Positions 4,767 through 64,000 of a stretch of 64,000 nt of DNA are shown one piece after another; position 1 is the first letter of the stretch, and the number at the start of each line of letters is the position of its first letter. Origin of the DNA: an uncultured Candidatus Rokubacteria bacterium (GTDB lineage: Bacteria; Methylomirabilota; Methylomirabilia; Rokubacteriales; DASRDR01); contig CAWCVP010000015.1 in the NCBI GenBank assembly GCA_963799055.1, forward strand, positions 181,440-245,439, read 5' to 3'. A program made the translations under genes and the position numbers. The notes below the pieces were generated by a model that saw only the letters and a program-made list of their open reading frames with translations, was not told the DNA's origin and searched no databases.

Positions 4767-7700
4767 ATGCCGGACGGATCGAGCGCGCGAGGCGGGGTGG
4801 ATCGCCGGAGCTTCTTCCGGATCGTCGGCGCCGGCGGCGCGGCCGCCGCGGCGGCCGGGTGCGGCAAGACGACCGAGACGATCCTCCCCTTCGTCATCCC
4901 GCCCGAGCACATCGTGCCGGGAGTGGCGACGTGGTTCGCGACCGTATGCCGGGAGTGCCCGGCCGGCTGCGGCGTGCTCGCGAGGAGCCGCGAGGGTCGC
5001 GTCGTCAAGCTGGAGGGGAACCCCGACCACCCGGTGAACCATGGCGTCCTCTGCGCCCGCGGCCAGGCGGGGCTCCTCGGAACCTACGATCCGGACCGCA
5101 TCCCGGGTCCGCGGCTCCGCGAGGGCGCGTCGTGGCGCCAGGTCTCCGTCGCCGACGCGCAGAAGCTCTTCGTGGAGAAGGTGGCCGCCGCGCGCCAGGC
5201 CGGCCCCGGCCGCATCGCGATGGTGACCCAGCTCGAGACCGGCAGCCTGGGGCGCCTGGCGGACGAGTGGCTGAAGGCGGTCGGCGGCCGTGCCCGGCTC
5301 GCCTACGAGGCCTTCGCCCACGAGGACCTCCGCGCGGCGAACCGCGCCGTCTTCGGCGTCGACGCGATCCCCCACCACGCGTTCGAGGACGCGAAGACGA
5401 TCCTCTCGCTCGGGGCCGACTTCCTGGAGACGTGGATCTCGCCCACGGAGTACGCGAGCGCGGTCCGCCGCGTGCACGAGCTGCGGGACGGGCACGCGGC
5501 CCGGGTGATCCACGTCGAGCCTCGCTACTCGATGACCGCCGCGAACGCCGACGAGTGGATCGCGAGCGCTCCGGGTGCCGAGGCGGGGATCGCGCTGGCC
5601 TTGCTGCGGCTCGTCCTCGAATCGCGCCAGGTCCCGTCCCAGCCGGCGAAGGAGACCGAGGCCCTGACCGCGGCGGCCCGCGCGGTGGACGTGGAGGCGG
5701 TGGCCAGGCAGAGCGGCGTGCCCGCGGCCAAGCTTCGGCACCTGGCCGAGGCCCTCGTGAAGGGCGCGCCGAGCCTGGTGGTCACGGGCGGAGTGGCGGT
5801 GAGCGGGTCGACGGACGCTGCGATGGCCGTGGCCCTGCTCAACCATGCTCTCGGCAACGTGGGCCGGACGGTCCGATTCGGTCCGAACTCGACCCTGTCA
5901 CGGGCGAGCCGCTACGCGGACGTCGTCGCGCTGACCAAGGCCATGGCGCAGGGCGAGATCGCGGTCCTCATCGTGAAGGACGCCAACCCCGCGTTCACGC
6001 TCCCGGCGCGCGCCGGCTTCGCGGAAGCCCTGGCGAAGGTCCCGTTCGTGGTGAGCCTCTCGAGCCACCTGGACGAAACCACCGCCGGCGCCCACCTGGT
6101 CATCCCGGACCTGACGCCGCTCGAGTCGTGGGGGGACTACTCGCCGCGTGAGGGCGTGTGGTCGCTCATGCAGCCGGCGATGGGCCCGGTGCCGAAGGTC
6201 GGCGATACGAACCCGGACGCTCTCGATCTTCCGCAGCTCCAGGGCGTGAGGGAGGCGCTGGGCCGGAAGGCGCCGGCGTCGTTCCCGGGCGTCGACACCA
6301 AGGCCACCGGCGACCTGCTGCTCGATGCCGGGCGAGCCCTGGTCCCGGGCTCGGAGAAGAGCGTCTTCCAGGCCAAGACCTTCGCCGACTACCTCCGCGA
6401 GTCCTGGCGGGCCATGGGCAAGAGCGTGGCGCCGAAGGCAACCTTCGAGGCCTTCTGGGAAGAGGCGCTCCGCCGGGGCGGCTACTGGGCGGACGTGCCG
6501 ACGGCGAAGGTCACGCTCCAGCCGGGAGCGAAGGTGGCGGGCGGGGCCCCGGCGCTGGAGGGTGGCGCGACCGACCCCGCCCTCCTGGTCGTCCCGTCCT
6601 CGCGCTACTACGACGGCCGCAGCGCCAACAAGGTGTGGCTCCACGAGACTCCCGATCCCATGACCCAGGTCGTGTACGGGAGCTGGATCGAGATCCCGAC
6701 CGCGACCGCGCGAAGCCTCGGCGTGCAGAACGGCGACGTCGTGCGGGTGGAGTCGCCCCACGGCACGATCGAGACGCCCGCCTACGTGTCGGATACCTTG
6801 GCGGCGGGCGCGGTGGCGATCCCCACCGGCCTCGGGCATGCGGCCTACGGGCGATTCGCGCGCGGCCTCGGCCAGAGCCCGTACGCGCTCCTGCCGGCCG
6901 AGCCGGCCGCGACGTCGGGCGGGCCGCGCTGGCTGGGCGTCCGCGTCCGGCTCCAGAAGACCGGGCGGCGGGAGAAGCTCGCCTCGCCCGCCGGCGTCAC
7001 CGAGGTCGACCATTCCCGGGAGATCTTCGAGACGGTGAGCCTGGCGGAGGCCGTCAAGCAGGAGCGCGGAGGCAAGGCCCCGGCGCACGCGAACCTCCCG
7101 TCGATGTATCCCGACCTCAAGTATCCCCAGAACCGCTGGGGGATGACGGTCGATCTCGACGCCTGCACGGGCTGTCAGGCGTGCGTCGTCGCCTGCCAGG
7201 CGGAGAACAACGTCCCGTGGGTGGGGAAGGGCGACATCGACTACGGCCGGAGCGTGCAATGGCTCCGGGTCGAGCGCTGGTGGGATCGCGGACACGCGGG
7301 GGCGCCGGCCAAGGGGCATGCCGCCGCGTCCGGCCTCGTCGGGGTGGCGCATGCCGCCGATGCGCCGGCCGCCGGGCGGCCCAGCGCGCGCTTCCTGCCG
7401 ATGTTCTGCCAGCACTGCGAGGTGGCGCCATGCGAGCCGGTCTGCCCGGTCTTCGCGGCCTACCACACCGCCGACGGGCTGAACGCCCAGGTCTACAACC
7501 GGTGCGTGGGCACCCGGTACTGCGGCAACAACTGCCCGTACATGGTGCGGCGGTTCAACTGGTACCGGTACGAGTGGCCGGCGCCGATGAACCTCCAGCT
7601 GAACCCGGACGTGGCCGTGCGCGACCGCGGGATCATGGAGAAGTGCACGATGTGCGTGCAGCGGATCATCGCGGGGCGTGACCGGGCCCGGGAGGAGAAC

Positions 7701-39844: not shown

Positions 39845-39919
<75 letters not shown>

Positions 39920-39932
39920 GTCTTACCGCGCG

Positions 39933-39982
39933 GACGGGGGAGGGTAGTCCGGCGGCACCGCCGCTGAGCTGCCTCCCCCGTC
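39933..39982 (+). other. Perfect 11-bp stem hairpin (GACGGGGGAGG ... CCTCCCCCGTC) between tRNA-Gly and the tRNA-Cys fragment
   Basis: Arms at 39933-39943 and 39972-39982 are exact reverse complements. The loop holds a smaller GGCG/CGCC hairpin. No U-tract follows. Confidence 0.5.
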
Positions 39983-40024
39983 GCGTTCAGCGGGCCCCGC
40001 GCGGACGTTCAGTCGGTCAGGCCG

Positions 40025-40062
40025 GGCGGCGTAGCCAAGTGGTTAAGGCGACGGTCTGCAAA
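40025..40062 (+). repeat. 38-nt exact copy of the 5' half of tRNA-Cys (acceptor to anticodon loop); putative attL
   Basis: GGCGGCGTAGCCAAGTGGTTAAGGCGACGGTCTGCAAA is identical to 43346-43383. The sequence diverges immediately afterwards. Confidence 0.9.
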
Positions 40063-40256
40063 TGCGTCGGGCTGCGCACGCACTTTCAACGACTTCCCGC
40101 ACACGTCCACGGTGACGACACTCGGGCGGGGGCCGTGGCCCTCCCCTCGGTCCGGCCATGGCCAAACTGGACGGCTGGTCGGGTGTCCGGGCCTTGGGCG
40201 CTTCGATGAGAGTCCGCGACCCCTCTACGGCGCCCGGCGGCGCCTCGTGATGCGTG

Positions 40257-40499
40257 TCACGGCTGCGGATCGAGTGTGAGTTCCGTCACGATCCACCGGG
40301 CCGTCACGTCGTCCTGGTGCCCGCTGGCGGTGACCAGGACGCCGTTCGCGGCGCCGAAGACCGCCACCGTCGGGGCCACCCACAGCCGGCGCCCGTCGAT
40401 CTTCAGCCGGCGCCGCCCCGGATCCCAGGCCGCGATCGACCCGGTGATGAGGAACCGCAGGGGATTCGAGGCGACGATGGAGGTAAACGATCTGGGCAT
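40257..40499 (-). CDS. Hypothetical small protein (80 aa)
   Basis: ORF with a GAGGTG RBS 5 nt before ATG 40499. No recognisable motif. Confidence 0.4.
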   Translation of the reverse strand: MPRSFTSIVASNPLRFLITGSIAAWDPGRRRLKIDGRRLWVAPTVAVFGAANGVLVTASGHQDDVTARWIVTELTLDPQP

Positions 40500-40633
40500 G
40501 GGGGACACCTCGCCGTCGGCCGGTAGCTCGTACGGCACTGGGGCGGATGCCACGGCGACACGTTACCCGCCGCGGGCCGCTCCGAAAGCGTGTCCCGAGG
40601 TCCGAAGTCTATCGCCCTTCCGACGTTCCGTCG

Positions 40634-40650
40634 AGTGCCCGTCTGGCGCC
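40634..40650. repeat. Left 17-bp direct repeat (AGTGCCCGTCTGGCGCC) flanking the IS; putative target-site duplication
   Basis: Exact copy of 42149-42165. Abuts the left inverted repeat. Confidence 0.85.
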
Positions 40651-42148
40651 TGCTGTTGGTCTATGAAAATGTCCTCCCCTAACTGTTCCGTGAAAGTGTC
40701 CTCCCATGGAGCCATGGGAGACCGTCACGATGAGTCGCAAGGAGGCCCGGCGGCCGGGCCTGGTGCAGTTGGCCGTGGCCGGGAAGATCACGACCGCCGA
40801 GGGGGCCCGGAGCTTGGAGATGAGCCTGCGGCAGTTCCGGCGCCTCAAGGTCCGGTATCGGGCCGAGGGGGTGCGGGGGCTGGTCCACCGGCGCCGGGGC
40901 CAGCCGTCGGGCCGCGGCCTGGACGTCGAGGTCCGCGACCGGGTCGTCGAGTTGGTCCAGACCACGTACCGCGACTTCAATGACTGCCACTGCACCGAGA
41001 AGCTCCGCGACGTGGAGGGCCTGCGCGTCAGCCGGAGCACCGTCCGCCGGCTGCGCCGGGCCCGCGGCCTGCCCCCCAAGCGGCGCCGCCGGCCCCCCCA
41101 GCACCGGGCCCGGCGCCCGCGCCGCCCGGCCATGGGGAGCCTCGTCCTCGTCGACGGCAGCGAGTTCGACTGGCTCGGCACCGGCACCCCGCTCTTCCTG
41201 CTCGGCGCCATCGACGACGCGACGAGCGCCATCGTGGCCCTGCACTTCCGCCCGGCCGAGGACCTGCACGGCTATCTCACGCTGCTCCGCCAGCTCGCCG
41301 CGCGCGTGGGCCTGCCCGTGACCCTGTACGGCGATCGCCTCGGCGTCTTTGTCCGCAATGACGACCACTGGAGCCTCGAGGAAGAGCTCCAGGGCGCGCA
41401 GCACCCCACGCACTTCGGCGCGATCCTCCGGGACCTCGGCATCGGCTACATCGCCGCCCACTCGCCCCAGGCCAAGGGCCGCATCGAACGCCTGTGGGAA
41501 ACCCTGCAGGATCGCCTCGTCGCCGAGCTCCGCCTCCACGGCATCCAGACCGTCGCCGCGGCCGAGGCCTTCCTCCCCACCTACCTCGCGGACCACAACC
41601 GCCGCTTGGCCCAGCCCCCCGCCGAGACGACGGCGGCCTGGCGACGGCCCCCCGTGACCTGGCCGAGCGCCTCAGCTGCCGCTATACGCGCCGCGTGGCC
41701 CGCGACAACACCGTGCGCCTCGGCCCGCGCCTCGTCCAGATCCCGCGCGGCCCGCACGGGCGCTCGTACGCCGGCTGCCGCGTCGAGGTCCGGGAGTGCC
41801 TCGATGGCCGGCTGCTCGTCGACTATCAGGGACGCCGCCTGGTCACCGCCCCGGCGCCGGCGGCCGATTTCGTCCTCGGTCCCCGGGCGCCGGCAACGCC
41901 TACGCGCCTCCAGGAGCCCGTCGGAGGAGGGGGGCCGCCATCTCCCCCTTGGCCAAAACGGGCGCGTCTTCGCCGATCGCGGCCCTCACCGCCCTGGCCC
42001 AGCACCTGCGCCGCCCGGCCCGCCCGCATCCGTGGCGGCAGACCTTCTCGCGCCGGCAACGCGAACGCCGTCGCCAGGAGACCCTCACCACCTGATGGGC
42101 GGACATTTTCACTGAACAGTTAGGCGGACATTTTCACTGGACAGCGAC
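40651..42148 (+). mobile_element. Insertion sequence, ISNCY/IS1202-like (about 1.5 kb), with ~55-bp imperfect terminal inverted repeats
   Basis: Each end carries two copies of GTGAAA(A/G)TGTCC(G/T)CC separated by TAACTGTTC. Flanked by 17-bp direct repeats. Encodes an HTH plus rve (DDE) transposase. Confidence 0.85.
40706..42095 (+). pseudogene. ISNCY-family DDE transposase (HTH plus integrase-core domain), at least two frameshifts
   Basis: MSRKEARRPGLVQLAVAGKITTAEGARSLEMSLRQFRRLKVRYRAEG..., VLVDGSEFDWLG...LLGAIDDATS, YGDRLGVF, AHSPQAKGRIERLWETLQDRLV. The C-terminal part continues in other frames (CRYTRRVARDNTVRL...). Confidence 0.8.
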
Positions 42149-42165
42149 AGTGCCCGTCTGGCGCC
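42149..42165. repeat. Right 17-bp direct repeat flanking the IS
   Basis: AGTGCCCGTCTGGCGCC, identical to 40634-40650. Confidence 0.85.
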
Positions 42166-42243
42166 CGGGGCGGGGGCTTGGTAGGGTCGGGCGGACCTGG
42201 TGCCCGAAACTCGACGCGCGTACCGGACAGAGGAGGCTCGATC

Positions 42244-42510
42244 ATGAACTGGCCGACCGCCGCCATCATCGTGAGTGGGTTCATCGTCGGGGCGCTGGTC
42301 CTGTCCCAGCCCGCCGTGTCCCAATCCCCCGGCACGTGGACAGGAGTCGGCATGGAGGGGAACTCGGGATGGGTGGTCAACGTTCACGGGACAGGTCAAG
42401 GCCTGTCAGACGTCGGGGGCTGGGCTCACGTGCAGGCTGAGCCCGTAGCGCTGGTCCACTTCCGGACCCGACGCTCTCCTGGAAGTTCGGAGGACTCGAC
42501 ATGCTTGTGA
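42244..42510 (+). CDS. Hypothetical small exported/membrane protein (88 aa)
   Basis: Strong RBS (AGAGGAGG) before ATG 42244. N-terminal hydrophobic helix MNWPTAAIIVSGFIVGALVL. No known motif. Confidence 0.45.
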   Translation: MNWPTAAIIVSGFIVGALVLSQPAVSQSPGTWTGVGMEGNSGWVVNVHGTGQGLSDVGGWAHVQAEPVALVHFRTRRSPGSSEDSTCL

Positions 42511-42523
42511 TGCGTGCATCACA

Positions 42524-42730
42524 ATGACACCGACACCGAGACAGGTAGGCATACGATTGAAGCGAGTCCGGGAAACGAAGGGACTGAGTCAGACGACGCT
42601 GGCCAGGCGCGCGAAGCTCTCGCGCGAGCACATCGTCCGGCTCGAGGGCGGACGATACGACCCAACGGTGACCACACTCACGAAGCTCGCCAAGGCCCTC
42701 GGAGTGCCGATCACGGACCTCTTGTCGTGA
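42524..42730 (+). CDS. XRE-family helix-turn-helix transcriptional regulator (68 aa)
   Basis: IRLKRVRETKGLSQTTLARRAKLSREHIVRLEGGRYDPTVTTLTKLAKALGV is a textbook HTH_3 domain. Confidence 0.85.
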   Translation: MTPTPRQVGIRLKRVRETKGLSQTTLARRAKLSREHIVRLEGGRYDPTVTTLTKLAKALGVPITDLLS

Positions 42731-42732
42731 CC

Positions 42733-42882
42733 ATGCGGGCGCGTCGCGTCTGGCTCTGGATCGTCGCGGCGGCGCTGATGAGCTTCAGCGGGTGCTCTCA
42801 GGACCCGGTGGGACCCGCGCCCGAGCCGCCGCCCAGCTGTGTGGATCAATTCTCGGGACGTGTCTCTCGCGATTGTCTGTGA
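42733..42882 (+). CDS. Hypothetical small lipoprotein (49 aa)
   Basis: MRARRVWLWIVAAALMSFSGC has a signal plus lipobox. It starts 3 nt after the XRE stop. Confidence 0.4.
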   Translation: MRARRVWLWIVAAALMSFSGCSQDPVGPAPEPPPSCVDQFSGRVSRDCL

Positions 42883-43104
42883 TGGACAGTGAGTGGCCAA
42901 GGCACTCGGCGTGCCGGTGTGACCTCGCTGCTGGAATAGCGCTGACGACTCGATGGCACCATTCCGGCCACTCCATTCAGAGGATTGAAGCTTCCATGGC
43001 CCAACAGCTCGATGCCGCGCCCCCGACCAGTCGCCGCGACGCTGAGGCGCATCGAGAACAAGCTGAAGTAGACGGGACGCCTGTGTCGAATGGATTGTTC
43101 TGTC

Positions 43105-43292
43105 TCAAGGCCCTCGGCGTGTCGGTGACGGCGCTGCTGGAGTGCCATGCCGACCTCCGGATGACCCTCCGGTACGCCCACCTGAGTCCGGCGCACCTGC
43201 GCGGCGCGGTGGAGCGGCTCGAGGGACTCGGGCAGGGGACGCCCGCGTCGACATCGGAACCCGCCGCGGAATCGCAGCCCGTGGGCACATAA
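43105..43292 (+). pseudogene. Tyrosine recombinase (phage-type integrase), C-terminal fragment only
   Basis: ...ALGVSVTALLECHADLRMTLRYAHLSPAHLRGAVERL matches the extreme C-terminus (GHxxxxMT.RYaHl, catalytic Tyr). Nothing integrase-like lies upstream. It sits directly next to tRNA-Cys. Confidence 0.65.
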
Positions 43293-43303
43293 ACGGGCAC
43301 ATA
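43283..43303 (+). repeat. Two direct copies of GGGCACATA, 12 bp apart, between the integrase fragment and tRNA-Cys
   Basis: Copies at 43283-43291 and 43295-43303, plus a related GTGGGC at 43315. Possible recombinase or accessory-protein binding sites. Confidence 0.4.
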
Positions 43304-43345
43304 GGGTAGAATGCGTGGGCCCGTTCACACGTAAGTGGTTGAAAA

Positions 43346-43421
43346 GGCGGCGTAGCCAAGTGGTTAAGGCGACGGTCTGCAAAACCGTTATTCGGCGGTT
43401 CGAATCCGCCCGCCGCCTCCA
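43346..43421 (+). tRNA. tRNA-Cys (anticodon GCA), CCA encoded
   Basis: Acceptor GGCGGCG/CGCCGCC, anticodon arm ACGGT-CTGCAAA-ACCGT, T arm GGCGG-TTCGAAT-CCGCC. Confidence 0.95.
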
Positions 43422-43466
43422 CCTTCCCTCGTCCCGAGCCGGATCGATCGTCTGAGAGCCTGAACG

Positions 43467-44261
43467 TTGAGCGCTAGACCGTTGGGAGATACCAGTTACT
43501 TCGCTTCCGGGTGGGACTTCGCCGAGGAGCGTGCGCGTCTGCGCATGCTGGAGGGGGTATACGACCCGGAGACGACGCGCCGCTTGTCGAACATCGGAGT
43601 CACGGACGGTTGGCGGTGCCTCGAGCTCGGAGCTGGTGCCGGTTCCATCGCGCGCTGGCTCGCTGAGCGGGTCGGACCAGCCGGACAGGTGGTTGCCGCT
43701 GACATCGATACGCGCTTCCTTCAGGACCTCGACCTGTCGAACGTCGAGGTGCGGCAGCTCGACATCCGGACTACCGACCTGGAGGACGAGAAGTACGATC
43801 TCATCCACTGCCGGGCACTCCTGATCCACCTCACCGACACGGAGCGCGTCGGCCGGCGGATGGTCGCCGCCTTGCGGGCTGGCGGCTGGCTGCTGGCCGA
43901 GGAGCCCGATCTTACGGCTCGGGTCGCGGTCACTCGCGATCACCCCGATGCCGAGACCTTCGATTCGTTCGTGCGACGGACAACCAAGTGGCACGACTCC
44001 AGATTCGGGAGATCGCTCCCGTTGCTGCTGGATCGGCTGGGTCTCGCGGACTGCGGTAACGAGGTGACGAGCGTTATCGTACGCGGCGGCGAGCCTCGCG
44101 CCCGCTTGTACGTCGAGACCCGCCGGCGCGTCCGCGACGCATACTTCGCCGAGGGCGTCATCTCGCCAGAGGAGTACGAGCGATTCGAACGCGCCCTGCA
44201 CGATCCGGGCTTCGCATTCCTGGATTGCCTGTTCGTGGCGGCATGGGGACGGCGCTCGTGA
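43467..44261 (+). CDS. Class I SAM-dependent methyltransferase
   Basis: SAM motif I CLELGAGAGSIARWLAERVG, then VVAADID...YDLIHCRALLIHL. Confidence 0.75.
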   Translation: MSARPLGDTSYFASGWDFAEERARLRMLEGVYDPETTRRLSNIGVTDGWRCLELGAGAGSIARWLAERVGPAGQVVAADIDTRFLQDLDLSNVEVRQLDIRTTDLEDEKYDLIHCRALLIHLTDTERVGRRMVAALRAGGWLLAEEPDLTARVAVTRDHPDAETFDSFVRRTTKWHDSRFGRSLPLLLDRLGLADCGNEVTSVIVRGGEPRARLYVETRRRVRDAYFAEGVISPEEYERFERALHDPGFAFLDCLFVAAWGRRS

Positions 44262-44460
44262 GCAACACCTCGCCCGTAGCCCGTCCAAGAAACCGGGTGC
44301 GGTGCTGGCAACGCTCCGCACGGCGGCGACCGGCGACCCGCCAGGTCGTCCCTGTGCGCGAAAGTGGCACCTAAAGCGGCACCGGCGGCCGGACGCGATG
44401 GGACGCGCCACGGGATCGGAGCCAGATAACCTCACGTATCATCGGACGAAACGCGCACAC

Positions 44461-44549
44461 GCCGGGGTGGCGAAACTGGAAGACGCGGCGGACTTAAAAT
44501 CCGCTACGTCGCAAGACGTGTGAGGGTTCGACTCCCTCCCCCGGCACCA
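44461..44549 (+). tRNA. tRNA-Leu (anticodon TAA), long variable arm, CCA encoded
   Basis: Acceptor GCCGGGG/CCCCGGC, anticodon arm GCGGA-CTTAAAA-TCCGC, variable stem ACGTC-GCAA-GACGT, T arm GAGGG-TTCGACT-CCCTC. Confidence 0.95.
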
Positions 44550-56885: not shown

Positions 56886-57857
56886 TCGGCCGAAGGGGAC
56901 TCCTGCGCACGCTGGGGCTGGGCCTCCTCGCCGCACCGCTCGCCGTCGAGGCGCAGCTGACGGGGAAGTCCCTCGCATTGGCATCCTTCGCCCTGGCTCG
57001 CCTCCCGATCCCTTGATCGAGGCATTCCGGCAAGGGCTTCGCGAGCTGGGCTACGCCGAGGGGCGCGACATCACCATCGAGTACCGTTGGACGGAGGGCA
57101 GAGACGAGCGGCTTCCCGATCTCGCCGCCGACCTGGCCCGCCTCAACGTGGACATCATCGTCACGTCCGGCCTAGGAACCCAGGCGGCCAAGCGCGCCAC
57201 TTCCACGATCCCCATCGTCATGCAGGTCTCCATCGAACCCGTGGAGAAAGGCCTCGTCGCGAGCCTCGCTCGGCCAGGCGGAAACGTGACCGGGTTGACG
57301 ACGTCCACTGAGGATCTGCCCGGGAAATGGATGGAGCTCCTGAAGGACATCCTTCCCAGGGTCTCTCGCGTGGCTGTCCTCTTCGATCCCAGAGCAGCCC
57401 AGAGGCTCAATTGAAAGCTGCGGAAACGGCAGCGCGCTCTCTGGGTGTGCGCCTTCAAATGTTGAAGGTGGGACATTCGGACGAACTAGGCGCTGCATTT
57501 GCGGCGGCGCAAAAGAACAGTGCTGAAGGCCTCATCGTCTTTGGATCGGCATTCGTCTTTGCGCACCGAACACGCCTCGTCGAGCTGGCGGCAAGGCACC
57601 GGCTGCCCACAATCTACGACCAAAGGCAGTTCGTCGCGAGTTCCGGCGGTCTCATGTCCTATGGGCCAAACATCCATGACCTGTTCCGGCGGTCTGCCAC
57701 CTATGTGGACAAGATCCTGAAGGGCGCCAAGCCTGCCGACCTCCCGGTCGAGCAACCCACCAAGTTTGAGCTGATCGTCAACCTCAAGACCGCGAAGGCG
57801 CTGGGGCTCACGATCCCGACCTCGGTGCGGGCGCGGGCGGATCAGACGATTCGATGA
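56882..57857 (+). CDS. PF04392 substrate-binding protein, tandem copy 2, frame broken at least twice
   Basis: MIGRRGLLRTLGLGLLAAPLAVEAQ, then in other frames FRQGLRELGYAEGRDITIEYRWTEG...ASLARPGGNVTG and ...KILKGAKPADLPVEQPTKFELIVNLKTAKALGL. ATGA overlaps on both sides. Confidence 0.75.
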
Positions 57858-59633: not shown

Positions 59634-59777
59634 CGGCCGACGTCGCCGCCCGGCTCCCCTCGGCAGGGCTTCTCAATTCTGAGTCACCACGCACATGGGC
59701 CCGCATTTCGTGGTCGAGTGGCTGTCGCGAAGTGGGACACTGAGGCCATCCGATGTAGACGACGAGGAGGCCATGGC

Positions 59778-60581
59778 ATGAGGCGAACGGGGATTCTTGT
59801 CGCGCTGGGGCTGACGCTGTCGCTCCTGGGCGCACTCGGGCCAGGGGTGGGCACGGCCGCGGCGTTCCACGAAGCCACGGTGCATCTGGAAGCGGGCGCG
59901 TGGTTCCCGACCCTGGACGGCGAGCTTCGCTCGTCCGACTCGGAGCTGACGGGGGACCTGATCTCCGCGAGCGACATCGGCATCGACGACCCCGACGTCG
60001 TGTTCCAGGGCGGGATCACGTTCCGACTCCTGCAGCGCCACACGATCCGGATCCACGGCTTCGGCGTCAGCCTCGACGGGGACACCAACCTCAACCGCTC
60101 GTTCAACTTCGACGGGCGCACGTACCCGGTCTCGACCGGTGTGACCTCGGAGGCCGACGCCGCCTTCTTCGGCGCGGACTACGGCTTCGACCTGGTGCAC
60201 ACGGAGGTGGTCGCCCTCGGCCTGACGCTGGGCGCCCGGTTCCTGTCGGCCGAGGCCTCGATCAAGGCACCGCTCCTCGGCCTGGAGGGTAAGGGAGAGC
60301 TGGAGTCGGCGCTGCCGGCCGTGGGGCTCAACTTCATCCTGCATCCGTTTCCGGTCGTGCCCCTGCTGAAGTCGCTGGCGCTGGTCGCCCGGCTGGCCGG
60401 TGGCACCATCGGCGATCAGGGAAGCTTCATCGACGTCGATGGGGGAGTGGAGTGGCTGCCGATCCCGGTCCTGGCCATCCGGATCGGCTACCGCTACTTC
60501 CACGGGCAAGGGGAGGACGGAGGCCAGGAGGCGGAGATCGACCTGAGCGGACCCTACGCGAGCCTGACGCTCGCCTTCTGA
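59778..60581 (+). CDS. Putative outer-membrane beta-barrel protein
   Basis: Signal peptide MRRTGILVALGLTLSLLGALG, alternating-polarity strands, and a C-terminal ...YASLTLAF ending in Phe. Confidence 0.45.
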   Translation: MRRTGILVALGLTLSLLGALGPGVGTAAAFHEATVHLEAGAWFPTLDGELRSSDSELTGDLISASDIGIDDPDVVFQGGITFRLLQRHTIRIHGFGVSLDGDTNLNRSFNFDGRTYPVSTGVTSEADAAFFGADYGFDLVHTEVVALGLTLGARFLSAEASIKAPLLGLEGKGELESALPAVGLNFILHPFPVVPLLKSLALVARLAGGTIGDQGSFIDVDGGVEWLPIPVLAIRIGYRYFHGQGEDGGQEAEIDLSGPYASLTLAF

Positions 60582-60620
60582 CCGGGGGACGTGGACCGGC
60601 GCTCGAGGGCGCCGGTCGGC

Positions 60621-61106
60621 TCAGGGGCCGCCGTCGCAGCGGCGGCAGACGCCGAAGAAGCGCAGCTCGTGGTCGGTGACGTGAAAGTGGTGCGACTGCT
60701 GGACGCGATGCCCCAGACGCGTCAGCACCTCGGGCTCGAGGAGGCACCCCTCCAGGTCCTCGATGTGACCGCACCGGCGGCAGATCAGATGGTGATGATG
60801 CGCCGTGAACGGCTCGGCCAGCTCGTAGCGGCGCTGCCCCTGGGTCGCGTCCGTCGCCCGGACCAGCCCCGTCTCGCAGAGCAGCTTCACCGTCCGGTAG
60901 ACGGAGACGAGGTTGACGCGCTCGCCTCCGAGGGCCCCGTGGAGCTGGGCCACCGTGCGCGGCTCCTGGGCCGTGGCGAGGGCCTCCAGCACCGCCCGGC
61001 GGGGCGCGGTGATGCGGTAGCCGCGACGCGCCAGGAGGCGGGGGATCGCGTCGCGCGGATCCTCGACGACTGCGGGTGGGGCGGGCGCCGCGGACTCGGC
61101 GGTCAC
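60621..61106 (-). CDS. Fur-family metalloregulator
   Basis: RITAPRRAVLEAL...VSVYRTVKLL...GLV, the HHHHLICRRCG ... CRRC structural zinc motif, and the HxH metal site. Confidence 0.85.
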   Translation of the reverse strand: MTAESAAPAPPAVVEDPRDAIPRLLARRGYRITAPRRAVLEALATAQEPRTVAQLHGALGGERVNLVSVYRTVKLLCETGLVRATDATQGQRRYELAEPFTAHHHHLICRRCGHIEDLEGCLLEPEVLTRLGHRVQQSHHFHVTDHELRFFGVCRRCDGGP

Positions 61107-61600
61107 TGCGTCACGCGCGGAGGCGGCTCGACACCCACGGCGCGGTACGTCTCGTCACCGTGCGGGACGAACGGCCCGCGCGACTGCCAGCCCTCGGTCG
61201 GCAGACCCTGCTGAACCCAGCCGGGGATGCCCTCGTCGAGAACCTTGAGATTCCGGTACCCCATTCCGTAGAGCTTGCCGTAGGCCAAACTGGCCAGGTG
61301 GTGTGGGCACGCTCAGTAGAGGACGACCAGACCCTGGCGCGGAATCTCACCGGCCCGCAGCTCGATGGTGTCGAGCGGAACCGAGACGGCGGACTTGATG
61401 TGGCGGGTCAGGAACTCCTGCCGGCTCCGGACGTCGACGATCGAGACCTTCGTGCCCTTCTTCAGCAGGGCGTTCAGCTCGGCTACCTTGATCACCTCGA
61501 ACTGGGGCTGCTGGGCGTTCGCCACGTGCGAGGCGCCGGGCAGCCACAGCGCCGCCAGGAGCGCCAGCATCGGCGCGAGGACGCGCGACCAGACCGTCAT
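61103..61600 (-). CDS. Exported single-domain rhodanese with in-frame TGA (61313-61315) at the catalytic Cys position; selenocysteine candidate or nonsense pseudogene
   Basis: RBS GGAGGGAG, signal MTVWSRVLAPMLALLAALWLPGASHVANA, and rhodanese motifs IVDVRSRQEFLTRHIKSAVSVP ... GLVVLY-TGA-ACPHHLASLAYGKLYGMGYRNLKVLDEGIPGWVQQGLP, all in one frame. The stop overlaps the Fur GTG. Confidence 0.7.
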
Positions 61601-61764
61601 GATCTCCCTCCTCGGGGTCCGTCGGTGATCGACACCATCCACAGGATACCGCATGGGAGGGCGCGCTCGCGTGGAGTCCGGCGTCACGGGGCGTGACGCA
61701 CGGCGCCATCGGCCCCGGCGACCGGGTGGACCGCGGACCGGGCGCGGCGCATCCTAGAGGCCCC

Positions 61765-63638
61765 ATGGTCGACTCCGGACACGGCGCCGCCCCGTCGGGA
61801 GAGCCCGAGAAGCCGGGCGCCGCGCGACTCCGGCCGTGGGAGCGTCTCAGCATCCGTCTGGCGGCGTTCTTCGCCGCCGTCACGCTCCTGGCGGTCGGCG
61901 CGGTCGGCATCCTCACCTATACGCGGCAGCAGCGTGAAGTCGAGGACACCGTCGGGACCCAGCTGCTCAACATCGCCCGCGTGAGCGCGCTCCGGCTCGA
62001 CCCGCGTCTCTCCGCCGAGCCGAGTCCCGCGACGGGGTCCGACGCGCACGCGCGGCTGCGGCAGTTCCTGGCGGCGATCCAGGACGAGACGCTCCTGACC
62101 TCCCCGATCACCATCCTGAGCGATCTCGAGGCCGAACGGCGGGAAGCGCGGCTCGTCGCCGCGAGCAGCGGCCCGGGCCAGCCGGGCGACGCGTACCCCC
62201 TCGCGCCCGAGCTGATCGAGCCCATGGGATGGACGTTCGACGACGGCGTGGCCCGGTACACGCGCGTTTACCGGCATCGGGGCGGCCTCTGGATCTCCGC
62301 CTTCGCCCCGATCCTCGACGGGCAGGGCCGCACGCAGGCGCTCCTGCACGTGAGCTACCCGGTCGAGATCTATCTCGATCGCCTGCACGAGCTCCGCAAC
62401 ACGCTCCTGTTCGCGACCGGCGTCGGCGCTCTCGCCACGCTTGGGCTGGGGCTCCTCGTCCTCCGCCGCCTGACCCGGCCCATCGCCCTGCTCACGGGAG
62501 GGGTGTCGCGCGTCGCCGCCGGCGATCTCTCCCGGCCCCTGCCGGTGACGTCCCGAGACGAGGTCGGCCGGCTCACTCGCGCGTTCAACACGATGCTCGA
62601 GGGGCTGCGCCAGCGTGACTTCATCCGCTCCGCGTTCGGACGGTACGTCTCCCCGGAGGTGGCGCAGGCCATCCTCGAGTCGCCCGAGGGGCTCCGCTTC
62701 GGGGGCACCAAGCGTGTGGTGACGGTGCTCATGTCCGATCTCCGCGGCTACACGCGGTTCGCCGAGCGGGGCAGTCCCGAGGAGGTGATGGAGGTCCTCA
62801 ACGGGTATCTGGCGCGGATGGCGGAGGTCGTCATCGCTCACGGCGGCACGATCAACGAGTTCATCGGAGACGCGATCTTCGCGGTGTACGGGGCTCCCGT
62901 TCCGCACCCGGACCACGCCGAGCGCGCGGCCGCCACCGCGCTCGCGATGCAGGCGGCGCTGGGCGAGATCAACGTGGAGCACGCCCGTCGAGGGTTGCCC
63001 GCCTTCGAGATGGGCATCGGCCTCCACACCGGGGAGGCGGTGGTCGGGAACATCGGCTCCGAGCAGCGGGCCAAGTACGCGGTGGTGGGCAGCGCCGTCA
63101 ACGTGGCGAGCCGCGTCGAGAGCGCGACGGTGGGCGGGCAGGTTCTCCTCACGGCGGCCACGCTCGCCGAGCTGGGGGGGCTGGCGCGAGTGGGCACGTC
63201 CATGGAGGTCCAGGTGAAGGGCCTCTCGAAGCCCCTCACGCTCCACGAGCTCCTGGGGCTCGGAGGACGCTTTGCCCAGGCGGGATCGGCGGAGGCGCCG
63301 GAGCCCGAGCCCCAGGCGGTGGTCGACCTCCCGCTCGAGTGCTGGCTCATCGACGGCAAGGTCGTGCGCGCCGACGCGGTGACCGGCCGCCTCGTCCGGC
63401 TGGGCCGCCGGGAAGTGCTCGCCGCGCTCGACCCGCCCCCGGCTCCGCTCACGAACGTCAAGCTCCGCCTCCAGTACCCCGCCGCCGCTCGACCGACCCT
63501 CCGAGGCGATCTACGCCAAGGTGCTGGGCCGCGAGCACCGATGGGCTCGTACGCATGCGTCTGACGGCCCTCGGCACAGGCGACGAGGAAGCGATCGCGA
63601 TGCTCGTCGGGTCACCCCAAGATTTCACACCTTCGTGA
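61765..63638 (+). CDS. Membrane-bound sensor: periplasmic domain, HAMP, class III adenylate/guanylate cyclase and an uncharacterised C-terminal domain; frame broken twice near 63490-63540
   Basis: TM helix, ~190 aa extracytoplasmic region, second TM, HAMP (LTRPIALLTGGVSRVAAGDLSRPLPVTSRDEVGRLTRAFNTM), and cyclase (VVTVLMSDLRGYTRF...INEFIGDAIFAVYGAP...GLHTGEAVVGNIGS..AKYAVVGSAVNVASR). Confidence 0.8.
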
Positions 63639-63774: not shown

Positions 63775-64000
63775 ATGAAGACGCGCCTCTACCTCGCCGC
63801 AGCCGTTGCCGCCGCCATCGCGGCGCCCGCCGCGACCGGCGCCCAGCCGGCCCCGATGCCGAAGTTCGAGGCCGAGAAGTGCTACGGCATCACGAAGGCC
63901 GGCAAGAACGACTGTCAGACCGCCAACTCCTCCTGCGCGGGGACATCGAAGCGAGACGCGCAGAAGGACGCGTGGGTGTTCGTCCCCAAGGGGACCTGCG
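63775..64000 (+). CDS. DUF2282-family small secreted Cys-rich protein (bufferin/BufA1-type RiPP precursor), 3' end cut by the window
   Basis: Signal MKTRLYLAAAVAAAIAAPAA, then EKCYGITKAGKNDCQTANSSCAGTSKRDAQKDAWVFVPKGTC, the characteristic DUF2282 Cys pattern. RBS AGGAGG. Confidence 0.75.
   Translation, partial: MKTRLYLAAAVAAAIAAPAATGAQPAPMPKFEAEKCYGITKAGKNDCQTANSSCAGTSKRDAQKDAWVFVPKGTC

Follow-up and report, generated by a model that had tools for sequence, protein, structure and literature searches.

We analyzed a 64,000-nucleotide stretch of DNA from an uncultured Candidatus Rokubacteria bacterium (contig CAWCVP010000015.1, positions 181,440 to 245,439; hereafter the window) with regard to a minus-strand gene at 61103-61600 that is interrupted by an in-frame TGA. 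Judging from comparison with homologous loci, this TGA is very probably the selenocysteine (Sec) codon of an exported rhodanese-like protein. A preliminary description of the window had offered two readings, a Sec-containing sulfurtransferase or a TGC-to-TGA nonsense mutation. The former is supported by the alternation of TGA and cysteine codons among homologues, by a conserved hairpin downstream of the TGA and by the Sec machinery of relatives, while the latter is excluded by the conservation of the TGA in the great majority of the loci.

An in-frame TGA at the catalytic position of a rhodanese

On the minus strand, one frame of 166 codons extends from the ATG at 61600-61598 to the TGA at 61105-61103, with the TGA at 61315-61313 as its sole interruption. 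The predicted product is an exported rhodanese-like selenoprotein of 165 residues including Sec96 (61103-61600, ending with TGA 61105-61103). Its start codon is preceded by the Shine-Dalgarno sequence GGAGGGAG (61604-61611, minus strand), which ends 3 nucleotides (nt) 5' of the ATG and has its GGAGG core 6 nt 5' of the ATG; this GGAGG is kept in the relatives. Residues 1-29 (61514-61600, minus strand) were read by eye as a Sec-type signal peptide (Sec here denoting the export pathway), MTVWSRVLAPMLALLAALWLPGASHVANA followed by QQ, with one Arg, a hydrophobic core and predicted cleavage at about VANA/QQ, and hydrophobic N-terminal leaders of an equivalent kind were present in all clades of homologues. 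The continuous frame with a ribosome binding site and signal peptide, as given in the preliminary description, was thus confirmed on the sequence, the peptide by inspection. With Cys substituted for the TGA, the protein matched the Pfam Rhodanese profile PF00581 (E 6.8e-15, 55.8 bits versus a cut-off of 22.2); a match to Pfam HHA (E 0.0029) was below threshold and was disregarded. In phmmer alignments the TGA column coincided with the catalytic Cys of the solved rhodaneses 6mxv and 6pfz, in agreement with the earlier placement of the TGA on the active-site Cys in a U-x-C layout. Read as Sec, the UGA (61313-61315, minus strand) would occupy the catalytic-Cys position and open a U-A-C-P-H-H loop.

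The same column was read at the DNA level in 96 loci, 16 from genomes and 80 from metagenomes, all of which carry the motif [Y/F]-x-x-C-P-[H/R]. The alternation of Cys and TGA envisaged in the preliminary description was found, with TGA in 88 and TGC in eight of the 96 loci. TGA forms were derived from many species-level metagenome-assembled genomes (MAGs) of Rokubacteria/Methylomirabilota, Nitrospinota and Thermodesulfobacteriota as well as from numerous soil metagenomes. The TGC forms fall in at least three separate clades, which argues for repeated exchange between Sec and Cys. At the protein level, more than 100 database homologues of exactly 94-97 amino acids, i.e. ended at the TGA codon, were retrieved together with a few full-length homologues of 166-168 amino acids and the motif VVVYCACPHH. 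Full-length Cys-form proteins with CACPH included P0001-P0006, P0022, P0026 and P0032, and the full-length Cys orthologues share synteny with the TGA forms. A profile search of 1.84 billion representatives returned mostly generic multi-domain rhodaneses and added few Cys-form relatives (CAC, CVC, CSC, CAT). Downstream of the TGA, the protein pattern ACPH..LA..A....L...GYRN..VLDEG.PGW is maintained, but four-fold sites are free to vary (four codons each at Pro+3, Gly+18 and Arg+20), and this part of the gene is therefore considered to be translated and under selection.

The downstream hairpin and the selenocysteine machinery

A hairpin, GGCCA-GUU-UGGCC, had been pointed out 17 nt after the TGA, at the distance expected for a bacterial selenocysteine insertion sequence (SECIS). 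Closer examination confirmed this for the apical part of the element. The hairpin (61283-61295, minus strand), with a stem of 5 base pairs (bp) and a 3-nt loop starting with G-U, begins exactly 17 nt past the TGA and places its loop 22 nt past the UGA. It lies within a predicted bacterial SECIS at 61271-61314 (minus strand), the lower stem of which pairs 61314-61311 and 61309-61306 with 61279-61276 and 61274-61271. Published rules for bacterial SECIS elements specify a loop that is 3-9 nt long, with G in its initial two positions, an upper stem of 4-16 bp, a UGA-to-loop distance of 16-37 nt and a minimum free energy (MFE) of at most -7.5 kcal/mol (PMC13188914). The GUU loop, the 5-bp stem, the 22-nt spacing and the -17.7 kcal/mol of the 48-nt element starting at the UGA (z -2.16; equaled or bettered by 6 of 200 shuffles) are all within these limits. 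The apical hairpin alone folds with -7.4 kcal/mol (z -2.67). An Rfam scan of 60500-62000 gave chance-level matches only, and the real stop at 61105-61103 is not accompanied by such a hairpin.

Because the thermodynamics alone are weak, the case for the SECIS takes its strength from the comparative data. Over 75 distinct sequences of the Sec form, 97.1% of cells in the 5-bp stem were paired, and the hairpin that the preliminary description had proposed to look for in related sequences was kept, with compensatory changes. Two versions were observed, GGCCA-GU[U/C/A]-UGGCC, which codes for A-S-L-A, and GGCCC-G[G/U]G-GGGCC, which codes for A-R-G-A. Between them, A-U is replaced by C-G in 20 sequences, and an outer-pair change from G-C to C-G was found in one sequence. 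Where the hairpin has a U·C mismatch, it is extended outward by GCUG...CAGC. The synonymous sites of the hairpin are frozen (Ala GCC in 67 of 67, Ser AGT in 55 of 55 and Ala GCC in 73 of 76), while four-fold sites near the hairpin have an entropy of 1.1-1.8 bits; AGT and TTG are unusual codon choices for such GC-rich genomes. Without exception, the Sec-form loop starts with G, and its second base is U or G. The Cys forms have lost the G-U signature and show GCC or GCG in the loop (the Ser codon AGC gives GCC); their stem is imperfect in five of seven distinct sequences, and the hairpin was absent from the MFE structure of the three Cys forms that were folded. An eight-pair extended stem was rejected as a general feature, as the outer three pairs are clade-specific. 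The window's lower stem (GAGC/UGCC with GGCA/GCUC), a subclade-specific feature, is lost in other clades.

Genes for Sec insertion were located in relatives. Searches with tblastn of the window and the first loci using Escherichia coli SelA, SelB and SelD as queries gave no match. A GC-biased DNA pattern for the pyridoxal phosphate motif of SelA led to two Methylomirabilota selA genes, one of which, used as query, retrieved selA from at least 20 MAGs labelled Methylomirabilota/Rokubacteria. Among the matches listed in this SelA-based genome scan, which used exact-word patterns, none belonged to rhodanese-bearing assemblies. Of 22 of these selA loci, 18 have a tRNA-SeC(tca) gene about 1.7 kb upstream of selA, and the tRNA-Sec (98 nt) is almost invariant across the phylum. 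A scan with a 30-nt tRNA-Sec pattern identified seven TGA-rhodanese assemblies (JBIOVM, CAWEXD, CAWDPM, CAVVOZ, CAYXBJ, DASZOL and DATAFX) as well as two Cys-form assemblies. JBIOVM also contains the strongest match to the window protein in the genome scan, with 88% identity. A tblastn comparison with the SelA and SelB proteins of E. coli placed both genes beside the tRNA-Sec gene in six of the seven TGA-rhodanese assemblies (SelA, 44-50% identity, E down to 1e-107; SelB, 31-39% identity, E down to 1e-78); the CAWDPM locus includes the start of selA only, and of selB the CAWEXD locus covers no more than the first 32 residues. PMC13188914, citing Deng et al. 2026, mentions a Methylomirabilota MAG for which 63 selenoproteins were predicted.

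Several observations were made alongside this search. A conserved selC-selA-selB cluster is found in the Methylomirabilota loci L218-L241, L259 and L280-L349 (L numbers designate the loci collected). Near-identical copies of selA and tRNA-Sec occur in bins labelled Nitrosotalea, Acidoferrum, Limnocylindria, Dormiibacterota and Verrucomicrobiia, which suggests that mis-binned contigs are behind the copies under other taxon names. The selA gene of a long-read Rokubacteria MAG (L259:6001-7057) has an apparent frameshift near 6420-6428 that splits its tblastn match in two and garbles the C-terminal half of a naive translation; this is probably an assembly indel. The window itself carries genes for tRNA-Gly(gcc), tRNA-Cys(gca) and tRNA-Leu(taa) at 39845-44549 (plus strand).

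A number of points weigh against Sec at this position. The check for Sec-insertion genes raised in the preliminary description turned out in favor of Sec for the relatives, seven of which have tRNA-Sec and six selA/selB, but not for the window, as neither tRNA-Sec nor sel genes were found within its 64 kb, and the Sec machinery is shown in assemblies of close relatives only. The 74-nt stretch after the TGA folds no better than shuffles (z -0.13), and the apical stem is short, with 5 bp, and energetically marginal when taken alone. The compensatory changes are few in terms of independent events and tied to the replacement of Ser-Leu by Arg-Gly; because they coincide with amino-acid changes, co-variation of the protein is not fully separable from constraint on the RNA. 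Two Cys forms (L017 and L035) retain a perfect 5-bp stem. Finally, because gene neighbors differ between clades, the link to copper described below may be a lineage-specific synteny that is suggestive for Rokubacteria only.

Among the alternatives, read-through or reassignment of the TGA without Sec, be it for instance as Trp or Gly (codes 4 and 25) or through near-cognate suppression, is very unlikely. In its favor, the database protein P0013 has W at the TGA position. The underlying codon, however, is TGA, and the W is an artefact of a gene call by code 4, in which the true stop is likewise read as W; the source of P0013 is locus L389 (JGI Ga0597026_0491961), for which the JGI call used a code with TGA as Trp. 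Moreover, 65 of 87 Sec-form genes have TGA as their true terminator, and TGA is also the most frequent stop codon of the window, where 70 of 97 open frames with 300 or more codons end in it. Genome-wide reassignment of TGA is excluded. At this column the homologues have Cys as the alternative, rather than Trp or Gly, and tRNA-Sec is present in assemblies with the TGA gene, with selA and selB adjoining in six of seven.

It is still less probable that the TGA is a real stop that leaves a functional 95-residue N-terminal half, possibly along with a separately translated C-terminal piece. This corresponds to the output of the NCBI, JGI and ENA gene callers, which give an open reading frame (ORF) of 95-96 amino acids and another of 53-61 amino acids. 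Such a truncated rhodanese, however, would be without the active-site loop and the last helix-strand-helix elements, the starts of the 53-61 amino acid ORF vary and are not conserved, and full-length Cys orthologues are found in the same synteny. Plain termination also leaves the freezing of the hairpin at the nucleotide level unexplained. Just as improbable is a nonsense mutation, pseudogene or assembly error in a single genome, with the gene dead: TGA differs from TGC by a single substitution, at least one gene of the window is split by a frameshift and no Sec machinery was found there, but the TGA recurs in independent loci that represent several phyla and many samples, with downstream frame, operon structure and hairpin all kept, and its conservation across loci makes assembly error irrelevant.

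Active-site loop and likeness to known proteins

If the TGA encodes Sec, the UGA at 61315-61313 would be decoded by tRNA-Sec and SelB, guided by the SECIS within the coding sequence, and translation would run for 69 more residues to the true TGA stop. The fold was modelled on the Cys-form orthologue P0001, which is 77% identical to the window protein. Its AlphaFold2 model has a rhodanese fold, with a block-mean predicted local distance difference test score of about 84-95 over residues 41-140 and a disordered leader and C-terminal tail, and Foldseek assigned a probability of 1.00 to its matches with 3nhv, 3ilm, 1yt8 and YgaP. The nearest solved structures are the single-domain rhodaneses BH2092, Alr3790, YgaP and 1yt8, mostly of unknown function. 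In the model, the Sec position ends the central strand, and the next helix opens with the invariant +2 Cys, after which come Pro and His. The U-A-C-P-H-H-L loop has Leu, not Arg, at +6, and this residue is Leu or Met across the family. A Cdc25/Acr2-type phosphatase or arsenate reductase was therefore rejected, as these have a seven-residue C-X5-R loop. The Pro and second Cys are atypical, unlike the classical six-residue sulfurtransferase loops, and the name 'sulfurtransferase' is for this protein a label based on the modelled fold.

The signal peptide would take the protein to the periplasm or cell envelope. There, the selenol may act as the nucleophile that takes up a sulfur, selenium or oxygen atom, or it may bind a soft metal. 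The Cys at +2 could then resolve the intermediate as a selenenylsulfide, so that the loop would form a CxC-type Sec/Cys redox or transfer center. A selenol resolved by the adjoining thiol would be the most economical mechanism.

Rhodanese-like selenoproteins have been grouped into five forms in a 2026 review, namely UxxS, UxxG, CxU (NF041203), UxxG and TsoB UxxxxU, and a UxU rhodanese variant was described in Olavius symbionts (PMC1976440). The best NCBIfam match of the window protein was NF041203 'rhodanese_LYCAU' (E 3.4e-14); with 52.6 bits versus a cut-off of 115 and the motif LYUAC instead of LYCAU, membership was rejected. The window protein shares with this third form a single rhodanese domain, the L-Y-x-A-x stretch, the alternation of Sec and Cys and two redox-active positions two residues apart. 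In contrast to NF041203, however, the order is swapped, with Sec at the first, catalytic position and Cys at the third, and the window protein is further distinguished by a signal peptide, by P-H following the Cys and by a conserved tail at its C-terminus (PFVPHGDETYRAVGV in Rokubacteria). Forms 1, 2 and 4 (Geobacter WP_010941598.1 and the Sargasso/GOS 'rhodanese-related sulfurtransferase') likewise have Sec in place of the catalytic Cys as well as Cys homologues, but by their motif descriptions they are set apart as UxxS or UxxG from the U-A-C-P with an invariant Cys at +2 observed here. The exported UxC form is outside the five cataloged forms and every NCBIfam model, although it may have been listed elsewhere before. 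One member carries the NCBI name 'rhodanese-like domain-containing protein', at 95 amino acids.

Among the rhodaneses without Sec, fold and size are shared with the periplasmic or membrane proteins PspE and YgaP of E. coli and with the structural-genomics rhodaneses BH2092 (3nhv) and Alr3790 (3ilm), all of a single domain. PspE is exported or located in the envelope. Unlike the window protein, these four contain just one catalytic Cys, placed in a loop of six residues, and neither Sec nor a second Cys, and identity to them is 25-33%. On the other hand, the thioredoxin-like Sec.2 (UxC) and the Cu/Zn efflux transporter SO_0444 (UxC) have only the U-x-C motif in common with the window protein, their folds being unrelated; by analogy, this likeness hints at selenenylsulfide or soft-metal chemistry.

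The Fur operon and the copper-stress island

The rhodanese gene comes first in an operon of two genes, the second of which encodes a translationally coupled regulator of the Fur family (60621-61106, minus strand; Pfam FUR PF01475, E 8.1e-21, 74.8 bits versus a cut-off of 23.1). The GTGA coupling noted in the preliminary description holds, in that the GTG start of fur overlaps the rhodanese stop by 4 nt and the same overlap recurs in the gene calls of relatives. The regulator carries AHHHHLICRRCG and CRRC motifs, with both the HHHxxCxxC and the C-terminal CxxC patterns present. With respect to its subtype (Fur, Zur, PerR, Irr or Nur), no NCBIfam equivalog cut-off was reached and PDB matches were undecisive. 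In Rokubacteria, fur lies directly downstream of the rhodanese gene in loci L001-L006 and L008-L011, while L007 ends about 70 bases past the rhodanese match. Upstream of the operon, the block ATGCGGTATCCT (61644-61655, minus strand), approximately 45-55 nt 5' of the start codon, is invariant at 11 of 12 positions in five aligned upstream regions (window, L001, L004, L009 and L010). This block may well be the -10 region and/or the operator, for the Fur-like regulator, of the rhodanese-Fur operon.

The order of genes is kept in Rokubacteria, with the Sec-rhodanese followed by fur on one strand, and a divergent HAMP-cyclase gene followed by bufA1 on the other. In the window, the HAMP and adenylate/guanylate cyclase gene is located at 61693-63564 (plus strand; Guanylate_cyc 5.8e-28, HAMP 4.1e-17), its start codon being uncertain. 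The bufferin-type gene mentioned earlier as lying close by was identified as a BufA1/DUF2282 bufferin precursor (63775-64000, plus strand; PF10048, E 2.4e-19) that is cut by the window end. Both genes are syntenic in L001-L011. Bufferins are periplasmic copper-chelating ribosomally synthesized and post-translationally modified peptides (PMC11626156). The longer loci of three relatives go on with the MNIO, HvfC_N and DoxX genes of a bufferin cluster, a Cupin gene, an inactive exported rhodanese and CusF, and two of these three islands also include a CopD-cytochrome c fusion. The arrangement suggests metal- or redox-stress-controlled expression of the rhodanese-Fur operon.

Given this neighborhood, the U-x-C-P-H(-H) loop might be a selenium-based site for a soft metal (Cu(I) or similar) or a metal-linked reductase site that acts in the periplasm with bufferin, CusF and CopD under the control of a Fur-like sensor, a proposal that we regard as tentative and rather doubtful. 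If true, the soft-metal site would make the protein a selenoprotein part of bacterial copper defense rather than a sulfurtransferase.

Further genes of the islands were recorded. The exported rhodanese-like protein without an active-site Cys (VVLYAGTPEEAAAAY) is encoded between CusF and the cupin (L390:157-570, L391:3422-3841 and L392:2957-3373), and a protein of the same type is found at L012:1543-2430; the Cys-less exported rhodanese of the island is presumably non-catalytic. A second exported selenoprotein is encoded at L390:5825-6376 (minus strand, CAWGVS010000005.1). It is a TlpA/Prx-like redoxin whose WTYG-U-INC motif (UxxC) contains an in-frame TGA, and gene callers split it into ORFs of 74 and 103 amino acids. 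Its equivalent in L392 is a full-length Cys form of 187 amino acids within the bufferin operon. On the other side of fur, the window contains an ORF of 287 amino acids (59718-60581, plus strand) with an N-terminal signal-like segment and no Pfam match, which is also found beside fur in several relatives and, judging from its composition, resembles a beta-barrel outer-membrane protein. In L390, this ORF and fur are separated by an inserted NicO/DUF1007 metal-transporter pair.

Other, likewise fixed surroundings were observed in other clades (L013, L038, L044, L047, L049, L050, L052, L055, L056 and L073-L094). One clade has an O-methyltransferase gene upstream and a tandem SseA-like rhodanese (CRIGERS loop) directly downstream, while in another clade the Sec-rhodanese is flanked by two PmbA/TldD-family peptidase genes. 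Elsewhere in the window, an ABC_sub_bind (PF04392) gene at 57013-57857 (plus strand) is split into the overlapping ORFs 57013-57414 and 57327-57857, which correspond to the N-terminal and the C-terminal half of the profile, respectively; this is a frameshift that reflects either a pseudogene or an assembly indel. This agrees with the earlier statement that the other defects in the window are of the indel type.

Rhodanese selenoproteins as such are already known, and because the phylum is known to be rich in selenoproteins, a Sec-rhodanese will in principle not surprise a specialist; the exported UxC form would be the sixth. The family is clean, widespread and mis-annotated, with an unusually well-supported compact SECIS. 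It is abundant among bacteria of soil and groundwater that belong to Methylomirabilota/Rokubacteria and some other phyla, and in NCBI, JGI and ENA its members appear as 95-residue fragments named 'rhodanese-like' or 'hypothetical', with a small orphan ORF behind them. In hundreds of MAGs, re-annotation would alter the gene models and the number of selenoproteins counted, and a compact natural SECIS in two co-varying versions may be of use in engineering. Together, the Fur regulator, the bufferin/CusF/CopD island and the second selenoprotein of one relative suggest that the use of selenium is tied to metal or redox stress of the cell envelope.

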